Source: a virus. Taken from it: a stretch of 64,000 bases of DNA. Both the position numbers and the translations under genes were made by a program. The first letter of the stretch is position 1, and each line of letters opens with the position of its first letter. The stretch is taken from IMG/VR virus record IMGVR_UViG_3300032797_000632, positions 32,001 to 96,000 of that record, one strand, 5' to 3'. Under the pieces are notes generated by a model. That model was given only the letters and a program-made list of their open reading frames with translations. It was not told the DNA's origin and searched no databases. Positions 17,678 through 42,530 of the stretch are shown here, in pieces.

Positions 17678-18436
17678 ATGGAGCGAGAGGCATACATCAG
17701 CAAGGAAAAAGGCAAGTGGTGAGTTCGTAGCGAGAAAAACCCCTCCTGGTCAGGAGGCTGCTACGACACCAAGCCAGAGGCCGAGGACAGGTTGGCACAG
17801 GTAGAAAGGATCAAGCACATGAAAGGCGGTGCCATGAACAAGGAAGGCGGGTTGCCGAAAACGGAAGAGGAGCTGAAGAATTATTATTGCCCGGAGTGCG
17901 GGCAGAACCCCGACAACCCGGAGCAGATCGTCTACGAGCCGAACCCGCATTATTTCTCCCCCTATGTTTGCACCGACTGCGGAAAGAGCGTGATCCCCGT
18001 CAGCAAGGACACGGGGAAGCAAATAAGCATTGAGGAATGGAAAAAGGAGCGCGAACTCCTGAAAGGAGGATCGATGGGAAAAGGCGTGATATCTGACGGC
18101 ATCAAAAAGATCGAGGACATCTTGGCCGCCAAGGAGGAGCCCGAGGAGAAGGCGGAGGGCGGGGAGGCTGAGGGTGGCGAGGAAGAGGAGCTTGTCCTCG
18201 AAACCGAGGAGGATGTGGCGGAGCTCTACGAGGAGGCCAAGGAAAAGGCCATTGAGCTTCTCGACGCCGTCATCGAGGCCACCATCGAGGAGGAGGGAAA
18301 TCCTCCCAAGTGGGTCAAGAACCCGGCGATCTGGGAGAAGGCCAAGGAGGCGGTGGAGCCGTACAGGGATAAGTATGATGAGCCCTACGCTGTTATCTCT
18401 TGGCTCTACCAAAGGCTCGGCGGAAAAATTAAGTAA
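17678..18436 (+). CDS. candidate selenoprotein (TGA at codon 15), multi-module with Zn ribbon
   Basis: GGAGG then ATG 17678; reads MEREAYISKEKGKW-U-VRSEKNPSWSGGCYDTKPEAEDRLAQVERIKH in frame with ORF 17792..18436; CPEC..CTDC. Confidence 0.8.
17723..17767 (+). promoter_or_regulatory. bacterial SECIS-like hairpin 1
   Basis: Lower stem CGUAGC/GCUACG, upper stem CCUCCU/AGGAGG, GGUC loop 25 nt after the UGA at 17720-17722. Confidence 0.75.
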
Positions 18437-18489
18437 ATCCATTGGGTTGGGGGAGAAAACTGCTTCGGCATAACCGAAAGGAGCCGATC

Positions 18490-18846
18490 ATGGGCGTGGC
18501 ATTGAAGGCGGGAATCGTCAGGCGGGCCCTGCGCACCGGCATGAGGCGGGTGGCCGGATACACGCACTACTGGAGCTATCCGCAGGGAAGCGAGTTCGGG
18601 GGCAGGCGAAACGCCCGGGGCGAAGGCGTCGTGGGAGTTGGGGCATGGAACGATTTGCTTGGCGGAATTCACGACATTGACGTCAAAATCGATACCGCCA
18701 TATCGGCCATCGGAACCGTGGGGCTTGGATTATACAATGCGGATCAAGTGCTCAAGGCCATAAAGCCCGCCCTCAAGGAGGCTTCCGAAAAGCTGGCGGA
18801 GGTGAATAAAATCGCTAGGGATATAGCGGAGACCTACTACAGGTAA
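18490..18846 (+). CDS. hypothetical protein
   Basis: AAGGAG RBS; leader KAGIVRRALRTGMRRVA. Confidence 0.65.
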   Translation: MGVALKAGIVRRALRTGMRRVAGYTHYWSYPQGSEFGGRRNARGEGVVGVGAWNDLLGGIHDIDVKIDTAISAIGTVGLGLYNADQVLKAIKPALKEASEKLAEVNKIARDIAETYYR

Positions 18847-18852
18847 TGCCCA

Positions 18853-19617
18853 ATGAGACGCAGGTCGTACTATCTCGGGATTGACCGGGCGACGCCAGTC
18901 GAGAACACCGAGGAGTCCTTCGATATGTATCAGTGGGACCAGACGGTGATGGACGAGCCCCATCCGCCGGCCCGGGTGGAGCAGTACCCGCCCCGGTGGA
19001 GCCTCGATATCCAGCGCCGGGAGCGGTGGCGGGAGAGGATGTACCGCCCGTTTCGCACGGACAAGTCCCGCACGCCGGCCTTCATAAAGAGGAGGCGGGA
19101 GACAAACCCGCGGGTGGAGATCGGAATGCAGGCGGGCATCATCCGCCTCATCTTGGCCGGGTATTTCGATATCGACCCCGAGAAAATCCACACTCTTTAC
19201 CACTCCACCCCTTCCACGAATGTGGAAAGCATCATGTCCCGTGGGCTGGTCCCCGGCCCTCCCCATAAGGGGGAAGATCCGGCGAAGCCGTGGCTCAAAA
19301 ATGTCGTGTGGATGGCCGACAGTCCGGAGGCGGCCAAGCACCACGGGCTCAGGCAGATGGAAAAGAAGGATGTGGCCGGGGGGCTGACGGTGCTCGAGAT
19401 CCAGTTCGACCCCAAGAAGATCAACCTTTACAAGGCACTGGCCCCCGGGTTTTTCACGACGGACGAGGCAATTCCCCCGGAATGGATCAGGGTGGTGGAG
19501 ACGGTCAAGAGGGCGGAGACGGGGGCGGATATGCATCCTTTGTTGGCGGAGAATCTCCGCAGGGCCCGGGAGGCAGTTGGAAGATTGGCGGAAAGATACA
19601 GGAAGGGATCCTCTTGA
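18853..19617 (+). CDS. ADP-ribosyltransferase-fold (Tpt1/KptA-like) domain protein
   Basis: LYHST..VESIMSRGL, VWMADS..A, VLEI, IPPEWI. Confidence 0.65.
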   Translation: MRRRSYYLGIDRATPVENTEESFDMYQWDQTVMDEPHPPARVEQYPPRWSLDIQRRERWRERMYRPFRTDKSRTPAFIKRRRETNPRVEIGMQAGIIRLILAGYFDIDPEKIHTLYHSTPSTNVESIMSRGLVPGPPHKGEDPAKPWLKNVVWMADSPEAAKHHGLRQMEKKDVAGGLTVLEIQFDPKKINLYKALAPGFFTTDEAIPPEWIRVVETVKRAETGADMHPLLAENLRRAREAVGRLAERYRKGSS

Positions 19618-19624
19618 CGATGAA

Positions 19625-40713: not shown

Positions 40714-40728
40714 GATCGGGGAAGGCGA

Positions 40729-41730
40729 ATGCCCAAATACGGAAGGGATCAATTTCCAGAGGAGAAGCCGCGGGCCGGCGATGTGATGCCCGAGTTTCCG
40801 CAACCGGAGATCGCCCGGATCATGAAGGTGGATCCGGACAACTACATCATCACGGTGGCGATGCCGATAACGAGGGCGGGGGTTATCCAGAACGCCGTCA
40901 TTCTGAAAAGGAGCCCCGGAGAGTACGAGCTTCCGCGGGAGAACGACTTCGGGCTTTTCATCTACGACAGCAAGAAGAACGCCATATGCATCGGATACCT
41001 GGAGATGGACTATCCGACAAAAGTTGCCTCCCCCAACTATCAAATTCCAAAAGTTAGGCCAGGGCAAAAATACAGCTTTAGCCGGGGCCAGGGGACGGAC
41101 GGTAACCCCGAGAACATGTTCATGGTCTCGCAGTCCGAGGGCGAGTACAAGATAGCCGACACCCTCGGGAACGGGATGCTGATAAACGAGGGGGAGAGCC
41201 GGCACACAAACGACACGGAGATTCTGGACACGGCCGGCGGCGACCTGCGCATGGGCAATGTCAAGAGGCCCGCCGGCATAGGGCAGCCGGAGGTCCCGAT
41301 CCCCGGGCCGACGGGCATTCTCAAGGAGTTTCTGGTCCGGCTCTACGACAAGGTGACCATGCTCAAAAAGGCCGATCTCCGGGCGGGGGACGTGGTGGAC
41401 GACCTGGGCATTCCCGAGCCGGGCCCTCTCGGGGCGCTTCTCCGGCTGGCATTCAGGATTTTCAACGCCCTCGGCATCGAGGTGGCGTCGATCACGGTGG
41501 ACGACACGGGGAACATGTTTCTGGTGTCCAAGACGCAGGCCGTGCTAAAATCAGCAAGGGTGGCATTGGGGTCGGAGATGGCTATCCAACCCTACCTGCT
41601 CAGCCTGGAGTGGATCACTTATTTTATGACGCACACCCACACCTCTACGGCACCCGGAACACCGACGAGCCCCGTGATGGTTCCGCCCAACCCCACCCTG
41701 GTGCTTTCCAAGAAGGTGTTTGGGGAGTGA
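40729..41730 (+). CDS. central spike (gpV/gp5-like) protein
   Basis: OB-fold-like N-terminus; C-terminal HTH metal-binding motif (THTHTS). Confidence 0.65.
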   Translation: MPKYGRDQFPEEKPRAGDVMPEFPQPEIARIMKVDPDNYIITVAMPITRAGVIQNAVILKRSPGEYELPRENDFGLFIYDSKKNAICIGYLEMDYPTKVASPNYQIPKVRPGQKYSFSRGQGTDGNPENMFMVSQSEGEYKIADTLGNGMLINEGESRHTNDTEILDTAGGDLRMGNVKRPAGIGQPEVPIPGPTGILKEFLVRLYDKVTMLKKADLRAGDVVDDLGIPEPGPLGALLRLAFRIFNALGIEVASITVDDTGNMFLVSKTQAVLKSARVALGSEMAIQPYLLSLEWITYFMTHTHTSTAPGTPTSPVMVPPNPTLVLSKKVFGE

Positions 41731-41743
41731 TAGGAGGGATCGC

Positions 41744-42016
41744 ATGGCGTTAAGTGCACCGGCATTGAAGGCAGACATATTTGCGGCGATGCAGGCCAAG
41801 GGATGGAAGGTGACCGTGGCAACCCCGGACGGGGCCATGACCGAGACGTCGCTCGAGGACCTCGCCGATGTGATAGCCACGGCGGTGGTGAACCACATAA
41901 CGGCCAACGGGCAGGCCATCGTCCCGCCGACCACCTTCCTCGTGGGATGCACTGGGGGGCCGTCGCCCGTGGTTCCGGTTTTCAACCCGTCCCTGGTCCC
42001 GCTGGCGATAACATGA
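41744..42016 (+). CDS. small baseplate or spike-associated protein
   Basis: GGAGGG RBS; LADVIATAVVNHI. Confidence 0.6.
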   Translation: MALSAPALKADIFAAMQAKGWKVTVATPDGAMTETSLEDLADVIATAVVNHITANGQAIVPPTTFLVGCTGGPSPVVPVFNPSLVPLAIT

Positions 42017-42044
42017 GGGGATATCCCTTCGAAGGGAGCCGAAC

Positions 42045-42530
42045 ATGCCGATAAACTGCGAGCAATACCTGGCCGCCCTGCCCAACAGGCAATGCATGGA
42101 GGAGTTCCTTAAGGTGATCCCGAAGCAGGTTCAGCAGGCGATTTCGGCGAGCATCGACATAATAAAAACGGCGTCCACGGCGCAGAAAATTCTCGACACC
42201 TACCTCTATTCGCAGTACCTCGTCGCCCTTGCTGCCTTGCAGTACCAAATCAATGTGCTTAAGGCCCAGTACGCCCCCTTCTTTGAAACGCTTGATCTGC
42301 TGCAGACATATGTCAAACGATATCGAAACTGACCCGGGGCAAATTACCTCTACGGTCAGGTGGAGGCACTGGTGAGGGACAAGGTGGAGGAGATCGAAAG
42401 GAGGAGCTACGACTATTACCGGCTCAAGAGCTTTATCAAGAGGCGATTTACGGATAGCGAGCTCGACAAAATCCTCGAGATGCTGGAGGGCGTCGAGGAC
42501 TGTCTGAACGGGGCGATTTACAACCTGTAG
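42045..42530 (+). CDS. candidate selenoprotein (TGA at codon 96) in baseplate module, 161 aa
   Basis: Frame continues past TGA 42330-42332 (YRN-U-PGANYLYGQ..AIYNL) to TAG 11 nt before the next gene. Confidence 0.7.
42333..42372 (+). promoter_or_regulatory. bacterial SECIS-like hairpin 2
   Basis: Upper stem CCUCUAC/GUGGAGG, loop GGUCAG 21 nt after UGA; imperfect lower stem CCGGGGC/GCACUGG. Confidence 0.65.

Follow-up and report, generated by a model that had tools for sequence, protein, structure and literature searches.

Two in-frame TGA codons were analyzed in a stretch of 64,000 nucleotides (nt) of viral DNA (the window), which comprises bases 32001-96000 of a single 126,141-nt virus contig, IMG/VR record IMGVR_UViG_3300032797_000632. 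An initial annotation of this stretch had read both codons as selenocysteine (Sec), in two unrelated genes served by one design of selenocysteine insertion sequence (SECIS). Both in-frame TGAs were present, at 17720-17722 (site 1) and 42330-42332 (site 2), with frames open to 18436 and 42530, respectively. The common hairpin layout described for them was also found at both sites, with an A-rich 5′ internal loop, a CCUC/GAGG stem, and GGUCAGG following each TGA. The site 1 TGA stands where homologues carry the first of two paired cysteines and is a good candidate for a Sec codon, whereas the site 2 TGA appears to be a look-alike with a Shine-Dalgarno (SD) sequence and a start codon of their own downstream. 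Taking the two sites together, we lean slightly toward the reading in which the UGA is recoded as Sec at site 1 and is not recoded at site 2.

The site 1 gene and its conserved cysteine pair

The site 1 gene lies on the plus strand at 17678-18436 and comprises 252 codons with one in-frame TGA, ending at a TAA (18434-18436). Its ATG (17678) is located 14 codons 5′ of the TGA and is preceded by a GGAGG SD sequence on the same strand (17667-17671, 6 nt before the ATG). In this genome, GGAGG was found 4-10 nt upstream of 56 of 188 open reading frame (ORF) first starts, compared with 35 of 1474 internal in-frame start-type codons. The TGA (plus strand, residue 15) is the candidate Sec codon and takes the place of the first Cys of a conserved pair; the second Cys, encoded by TGC at 17759-17761 on the plus strand (residue 28), has been kept, and the pair was recognized from column covariation and an AlphaFold2 (AF2) model. 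From the N-terminus, the product would consist of a beta-beta-beta-alpha domain with the Cys pair, a CPEC...CTDC zinc ribbon, an acidic linker, and a C-terminal NPPxWVKNPAIWEKAK domain. The TGA is directly followed by GTT; as this is no start codon, reinitiation there is impossible in this phage. The first canonical start beyond the TGA is TTG 17792, which leaves a gap of 115 nt in the ORF map.

Homologues were collected with the first 60 codons of the gene as the query, with Cys placed at the TGA, against 1.84 billion representative proteins. This N-terminal segment returned 212 matches at E ≤ 1e-3, 48 of them at E ≤ 1e-10, and the best 150 of the 212 were aligned (152 rows). The column of the TGA held Cys in 136 of the 152 rows and the second Cys column, 13 residues on, in 138. 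Across the 150 rows that covered both columns the two residues covaried, with 136 Cys/Cys rows, 14 rows lacking both, and none mixed (these rows are related, and a Fisher p-value on them is not a true probability). The 14 codons before the TGA also matched the Cys-form homologues, with the frame unchanged across it. A frameshift or hop at site 1 was considered and rejected, given that the homologous frame is identical on both sides of the TGA.

The second Cys without the first occurred only in two proteins, P0009 (224 amino acids) and P0010 (317 amino acids), which begin one residue past the TGA position. Both share the N-terminus MRSEKNPSW with P0156, a cluster mate of P0010 at the Joint Genome Institute (JGI) that is of equal size, and the same start was called by two pipelines. 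In P0009 and P0010 a start-type codon directly follows the stop position. These N-termini imply a stop at the codon of the first Cys in P0009, P0010, and P0156. The portion of the domain that follows the TGA was 82% identical between the site 1 product and P0009 or P0010, compared with 59% and 43% over the whole proteins, which indicates that the stretch after the site 1 TGA is translated. One source labels P0156 a DUF1610 Zn-ribbon protein, evidently from the zinc ribbon alone.

Two further orthologues were recovered by a word-index search with the whole 252-amino-acid product as the query. P0163 (329 amino acids), which has both the zinc ribbon and the C-terminal domain, shows MDRKSYISHENGEYCVRSEN at the TGA position (longer context ENGEYCVRSENNPDWSGGCY). 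P0164 (436 amino acids) reads KKQWCVRSEN there (context KKQWCVRSENNPDWCGGCY) and shares the C-terminal domain, but the cysteines of the zinc ribbon are not kept. The Cys-pair domain and a C-terminal domain of the NPPAWVKN type therefore occur on one chain in both orthologues, and the zinc ribbon is common to the site 1 product, P0163, P0010, and P0009 but not P0164. At the DNA level, a jumbo-phage contig (L001) carries AAA TGG TGC GTA where site 1 has AAG TGG TGA GTT. Among 38 distinct sequences of the Cys-pair type, taken from 80 IMG/VR loci, 34 had a Cys codon at the TGA position and four had GAA (Glu). The initial annotation had proposed pairing of TGA with Cys in homologues as a check; such pairing was evident at site 1 and absent at site 2, for which neither a Cys form nor a homologue spanning the stop was recovered.

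The site 1 domain was modeled with AF2 from an alignment of 33 sequences as a beta-beta-beta-alpha fold (predicted local distance difference test [pLDDT] 77), with residue 15 on strand 2 and Cys28 on strand 3. Perfect covariation of the two cysteines, together with their placement on successive strands of the model, suggests a cross-strand disulfide between residue 15 and Cys28, which here would be a selenenylsulfide. Foldseek returned no PDB match to the domain model at E ≤ 0.001 (best 0.42), and neither Pfam nor PHROGs gave a family above the cut-off for the site 1 or the site 2 product. The domain is found on its own, N-terminally in small proteins, and within proteins as long as approximately 2,100 amino acids, often on contigs of 100-500 kb. 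Across ten large proteins that carry it, DUF5661 was detected in two, one sub-threshold kinase match was obtained, and nothing else was found.

The domain (17678-17821; loci L006-L085) was also observed to be a widespread phage domain with no Pfam or PHROG family, and it falls into two subfamilies. The Cys-pair subfamily follows the pattern ..[YWF]CV.S..NP.W.GGCY.. and the Cys-less subfamily the pattern ..KW[YQ]V.SEKGKNLGGPYDTK... No cellular homologue of this phage domain was found.

The hairpin behind the site 1 TGA and the case for selenocysteine

The TGA at site 1 is followed on the plus strand by a SECIS-like hairpin (17720-17771) with a minimum free energy (MFE) of −18.7 kcal/mol. Its lower stem is solidly paired, within 17720-17734 against 17758-17771, and leads into a 7-nt A-rich 5′ internal loop (17735-17741). 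The upper stem pairs CCUCCU with AGGAGG (17742-17747 with 17752-17757) below an apical GGUC loop (17748-17751) that begins 25 nt after the UGA. The rule for bacterial SECIS (bSECIS) elements, as it stands in the available text of PMC13188914, calls for a loop of 3-9 nt, an upper stem of 4-16 bp, a G in the first two loop positions, a distance of 16-37 nt from the UGA, and an MFE ≤ −7.5. The site 1 hairpin fits the whole of this rule in the form available there, with a loop of 4 nt, a stem of 6 bp, G in first position, a spacing of 25 nt, and the MFE given above.

Compared with dinucleotide shuffles, the hairpin was modestly unusual (z-score −2.36). Synonymous recodings that folded as well numbered 15 of 1000 for an 18-codon stretch and 10 of 1000 for a 16-codon stretch. 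The pairing is partly favored by the conserved peptide itself, in which the R-S codons face the G-C-Y-D codons and P-S faces G-G. A GGT-initiated loop was found at approximately 1% of random positions, and a loose bSECIS-like rule was satisfied after 14 of the 64 TGA stops among the plus-strand ORFs. Rfam, which was not checked for a bacterial SECIS model, gave no match in the window at gathering level and only chance-level rows at both sites. Taken alone, the site 1 hairpin is weak evidence for Sec.

The prototype bacterial selenoprotein gene is fdhF of E. coli, with a SECIS inside the ORF that is read by SelB and a loop of GGUC. Site 1 resembles such SelB/SECIS genes in its in-frame UGA at a Cys position, its immediate 3′ stem-loop, its loop starting with GGU, the spacing of 25 nt, and the stem of 6 bp. 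It differs from them in being a phage head-module gene and not a cellular oxidoreductase, with no selABCD on the contig.

The filter of Zhang and Gladyshev (2007), as set out in the available text of PMC1976440, asks for at least two Cys homologues, more than 50% Cys in the TGA column, and a bSECIS-like structure. In that form, site 1 passes the filter and site 2 fails its Cys-homologue part outright. Judged from sequence, site 1 passes the accepted in silico tests, namely Cys pairing, conserved flanks, truncated relatives, and a bSECIS-compliant hairpin, which makes it a good candidate. By the criteria in the accessible part of PMC1976440, the combination seen in the site 1 alignments is the standard SECIS-independent signature of a selenoprotein gene. 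The "new selenoprotein" class described in that text requires the in-frame TGA to be conserved in two or more sequences; measured against this, the stop in the site 1 relatives derives from truncated gene calls and was not seen as DNA.

Overall, Sec at site 1 seems to us reasonably probable. Translation would start at ATG 17678 and the ribosome would meet UGA 17720 after 14 codons. The hairpin, with its GGUC loop 25 nt downstream, may then recruit the host's SelB-GTP-Sec-tRNA(Sec), and Sec would be inserted where the relatives have the first Cys of the cross-strand pair. The predicted product would be a 252-amino-acid head-module protein with a Sec15-Cys28 pair. We infer the identity of the inserted residue as Sec, the binding of SelB to the hairpin, and the presence of selABCD in the host. 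The wider proposal, that a large uncultured phage clade of anoxic habitats has replaced the first Cys by Sec and so holds a virion-associated Sec-Cys protein and a new selenoprotein family, appears to us evenly balanced between right and wrong.

Several observations weigh against Sec at site 1. The public gene calls start downstream of the TGA, at ATG 17819 (P0162, 205 amino acids) or TTG 17792 (P0165, 214 amino acids), so that the N-terminal domain is missing from them altogether. For P0009, P0010, and P0156, the stop is deduced from N-termini, and neither the identity of the TGA nor covariation in the hairpin rests on the DNA of any relative. None of the 80 IMG/VR loci with the site 1 domain had a stop at the TGA position, and a DNA pattern specific to the TGA form matched no viral or metagenome contig other than the window itself, which was matched once as the control; the TGA form is therefore rare and confined to a small clade. 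Relatives of this clade were not found in metagenome or genome contigs, and viral contigs gave Cys-form loci only. A search of GenBank phages by tblastn with the site 1 and site 2 products gave no match.

The loose bSECIS-like rule was satisfied at 21% of 2000 random positions and in the equivalent region of seven of the 38 Cys-form homologues. By MFE, the site 1 hairpin ranked 4th of 39 when set among these homologues; three were more stable, and the structures were varied. Finally, no tRNA-Sec, SelA, SelB wing, or SelD/AIRS domain was found on the 126-kb contig, which is approximately 64% complete. The best match to the tRNA-Sec model on the contig was a tRNA-Met (23.7 bits against a cut-off of 47). 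The initial annotation had reported no Sec machinery in the window, and the whole contig bears this out. A third of the genome is missing, and use of the host's Sec machinery, on which a phage would be expected to rely anyway, is a reasonable assumption.

The downstream gene calls raise the alternative of a genuine stop at the site 1 TGA, with the N-terminal domain as a decaying remnant or an upstream leader peptide. Translation would then start at ATG 17819, at TTG 17792, or, in the relatives, at a GTG after the stop. A single substitution turns TGC into TGA, GAGG lies upstream of TTG 17792 and AGGA upstream of ATG 17819, and P0009 and P0010 have their start-type codon directly after the stop; the lack of Sec machinery in view agrees with this as well. 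A decaying domain is nevertheless hard to reconcile with two halves that are intact, in frame, and conserved, and with an identity after the TGA that exceeds that of the rest of the protein. The second Cys has been kept here, though it is otherwise lost whenever the first is absent. Furthermore, the GTT after the TGA bars reinitiation, and a full GGAGG SD stands at ATG 17678. We consider a genuine stop unlikely.

A second alternative accepts readthrough at site 1 without Sec, either by near-cognate decoding as Trp or Cys helped by the hairpin or by a suppressor tRNA whose gene would lie in the third of the genome that the contig lacks. A hairpin by itself is no proof of SelB binding, and at a completeness of approximately 64% a phage tRNA could be missing from the contig. 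However, a general UGA suppressor would not spare the 64 ordinary TGA stops, and only three ordinary tRNAs were found (tRNA-Arg(CCT), tRNA-Met(CAT), and tRNA-Thr(CGT) by ARAGORN). Trp is also unlikely to be tolerated at a position where Cys accompanies its partner Cys without exception. In the available text of PMC1976440, the known signature of Sec in bacteria is the site-specific recoding of a UGA that stands at a Cys position and is followed by a hairpin. Readthrough of this kind is rated somewhat less likely still than a genuine stop, and Sec is preferred to both at site 1.

The probable ordinary stop and the small gene at site 2

The upstream gene at site 2 (plus strand, 42045-42332) encodes 95 amino acids and ends at the TGA 42330-42332, as do its homologues P0003 and P0004, which end at the same residue. 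A hairpin, CCUCUAC-GGUCAG-GUGGAGG, follows on the plus strand at 42347-42366, and its 3′ arm holds a GGAGG SD (42362-42366). A separate gene of 52 amino acids starts on the same strand at GTG 42372 (42372-42530), a start shared by P0160 and P0161. The frame of the upstream gene is open from the TGA to TAG 42528-42530 (65 codons). The spacer between the two genes is 39 nt long and carries the GGAGG-N5-GTG start, for which the background at internal codons is 2.4%. The statement that readthrough would fill an unexplained coding gap in both genes thus stands for site 1, with its 115 nt and no canonical start, and fails for site 2.

The site 2 hairpin fits the geometric rule. Its GGUCAG loop begins 21 nt downstream of the UGA, the 5′ internal loop is rich in A, and the lower stem is sketchy. 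Against shuffles, however, its z-score was −0.66. Synonymous recodings that folded as well numbered 488 of 1000 for an 18-codon stretch and 387 of 1000 for a 14-codon stretch.

A query with the 161-amino-acid readthrough product, run against proteins of 88-282 amino acids, gave two matches only, P0003 (98%) and P0004 (67%), both 95 amino acids long and ending in ...RN. No protein in this size range spanned the stop and none had Cys there. With the 65 residues past the TGA as the query, only 52-amino-acid proteins were returned, the phage's own P0160 and P0161 (81% identical). P0161 and P0004 lie on one 19-kb contig, where the split into 95 and 52 amino acids is kept, with an identical end for the first gene and an identical start for the second. 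Around RN-U-PG, the residues that would flank Sec, there was no nearby Cys partner or redox motif, and the AF2 model of the fused product was poor (mean pLDDT 59).

Confirmation of the TGAs in other data had been proposed as a further check and was obtained for site 2 only, where the TGA was present in contigs of two runs (X1 and X2) from two studies. These contigs had no indel over 41948-42700 and a single difference in the spacer, 42338 G>T, which affects the third position of an in-frame codon and is not part of the upper stem. A contig of run X4 ends at the first letter of the TGA, and for run X3 no contig was placed on the region. The comparison of the spacer in X1 and X2 neither refutes nor supports readthrough at site 2. 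In the X1 strain, 12 differences were clustered at 41980-42023, at the end of a 90-amino-acid gene (41746-42016) and in the spacer before the site 2 gene, a much higher density than the coding regions on either side show.

Two of these observations run counter to an ordinary stop at site 2, namely the spacer that has no indel in two other strains, with its lone change at a third position, and the GGU-initiated loop, which, as at site 1, is an event of approximately 1% per position. They favor the rival under which both UGAs (17720 and 42330) are Sec codons under one SECIS design and the phage has two selenoproteins. It can further point to two hairpins that both meet the bSECIS rule and share CCUC..GGUCAGG..GAGG, and to the 65 open codons past TGA 42330. 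Against it, the search of proteins of 88-282 amino acids gave neither a Cys form nor a fused homologue, and in a relative (67% and 81% identical) the two ORFs are kept, the first ending and the second starting as they do here. The spacer carries a GGAGG-N5-GTG that is rare at internal codons, the hairpin z-score is about 0, and RN-U-PG has no Cys partner or redox motif nearby. With 64 TGA stops to choose from, one chance hairpin with a GGU loop is not surprising. Two phage selenoproteins under a common SECIS design are accordingly very improbable in our estimate, and Sec at site 2 is, when considered by itself, just as improbable.

The most likely reading of site 2, from its sequence, is an ordinary stop followed by a small gene with its ribosome-binding site in a hairpin. 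UGA 42330 would end the 95-amino-acid gene, and the hairpin would sequester the GGAGG of the 52-amino-acid gene that starts at GTG 42372. The proposal of one SECIS design shared by two genes was not established, given that the GAGG arm at site 2 is an SD and the hairpin is no more stable than shuffled sequence would suggest. Since site 2 fails the Cys, homologue, and hairpin tests, the claim of two genes with a shared design reduces to one candidate and a look-alike.

Translationally coupled neighbors with an SD-sequestering hairpin are a general form of bacterial and phage gene organization. Site 2 is like such coupled pairs in that a stop is followed by a hairpin with the GGAGG of the next gene, and coupling here is a candidate only. 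At 14 other predicted starts in this genome (for example 9076, 26855, 35619, 49312, and 57561), the SD was likewise observed to be the 3′ arm of a hairpin at least as stable as −8 kcal/mol. SD-pairing hairpins of this type suggest that translation is often coupled or masked in this genome. Site 2, as a negative result, also shows how common bSECIS-like hairpins are behind the TGA stops of a phage genome of 58% GC, and that a GGAGG arm can be simply the ribosome-binding site of the next gene.

Genome context and comparison with known recoding

The source contig is linear in IMG/VR, has an estimated completeness of 64% by CheckV, and has a GC content of 58%. ORFs of the plus strand alone cover 93% of the window, and the 188 of them end at TGA (64), TAG (64), or TAA (60). 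TGA is thus a normal stop elsewhere, as had been stated, and genome-wide reassignment of TGA (code 4 or 25, or the manner of suppressor-tRNA phages) was rejected, with 64 of the 188 ORFs ending at TGA and no suppressor tRNA found. A scan for coding sequence bridged by TGA gave site 1 as the only convincing case; neighboring ORFs in the same frame were common (43 pairs, six of them split by TGA). With TGA an ordinary stop and a single convincing in-frame TGA, recoding would be site-specific and not a change of code.

Some phages recode TAG or TGA genome-wide in late genes with suppressor tRNAs. The site 1 gene is similar to these in that it belongs to the structural module, contains an in-frame stop, and comes from a large uncultured phage. 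It is unlike them in that TGA ends 64 of 188 ORFs here, one in-frame TGA is convincing, and no suppressor tRNA was found.

Neighboring genes included a head maturation protease (21023-21868, PHROG E 2e-37) and a Baseplate_J wedge protein (43227-44654), the identity of which was confirmed by the Protein Atlas, without a clue to the host. Most neighbor genes had no Pfam or PHROGs family above the cut-off. Given the head protease and Baseplate_J as neighbors, placement of site 1 in a head-gene region and of site 2 in a baseplate region is reasonable on present annotation. A 311-amino-acid ORF (12914-13849) gave a weak PhuZ-tubulin-like match (PHROG E 4e-5). A jumbo-type phage is hinted at by this match, by a contig that is approximately 64% complete, and by the size of the contigs (100-500 kb) that carry many of the relatives of the site 1 domain.

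The heptamer GGTCAGG, present at both sites, occurred 22 times on the plus strand compared with approximately 16 expected. A dense cluster of it was noted at genome positions 108266-109109 (window-equivalent 76266-77109, past the window end), in GGT-rich short repeats GGTNNGGT.

The stretch was present in contigs of a landfill run, which contained half of its sampled words, and contigs of a freshwater-sediment run held a small share of them. No RNA run was among the sequencing runs listed with the stretch. Landfill and freshwater-sediment habitats could hold anaerobes that use Sec, with which these occurrences are no more than compatible.

Viral selenoproteins have been described outside of phages. 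In the available text of Atkins et al. (2021, PMC8310308), fowlpox and molluscum contagiosum viruses encode glutathione peroxidase selenoproteins, with the fowlpox SECIS inside the coding sequence. As far as that text goes, these poxvirus cases are the only viral selenoproteins discussed in the review. The site 1 reading would be like them in that a virus-encoded selenoprotein relies on the Sec machinery of its host. On the same partial text, the poxvirus glutathione peroxidases differ from site 1 in having a eukaryotic-type SECIS and being captured host genes, whereas site 1 would combine a bacterial-type SECIS with a phage-specific domain. In the accessible text of a 2026 review of prokaryotic selenoproteomes (PMC13188914), the words "phage" and "virus" do not occur. 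A full-text literature search, with most subscription journals and supplements outside its scope, found no description of a bacteriophage selenoprotein.

If the reading of site 1 is true, it extends Sec recoding to the viruses of bacteria, in the form of a bacteriophage-encoded selenoprotein. Standard gene callers would silently shorten such phage genes, as in the 205 or 214 amino acids called here in place of 252. Synthesis of this phage protein would then depend on the Sec machinery (SelABCD) of the host and on the supply of selenium.

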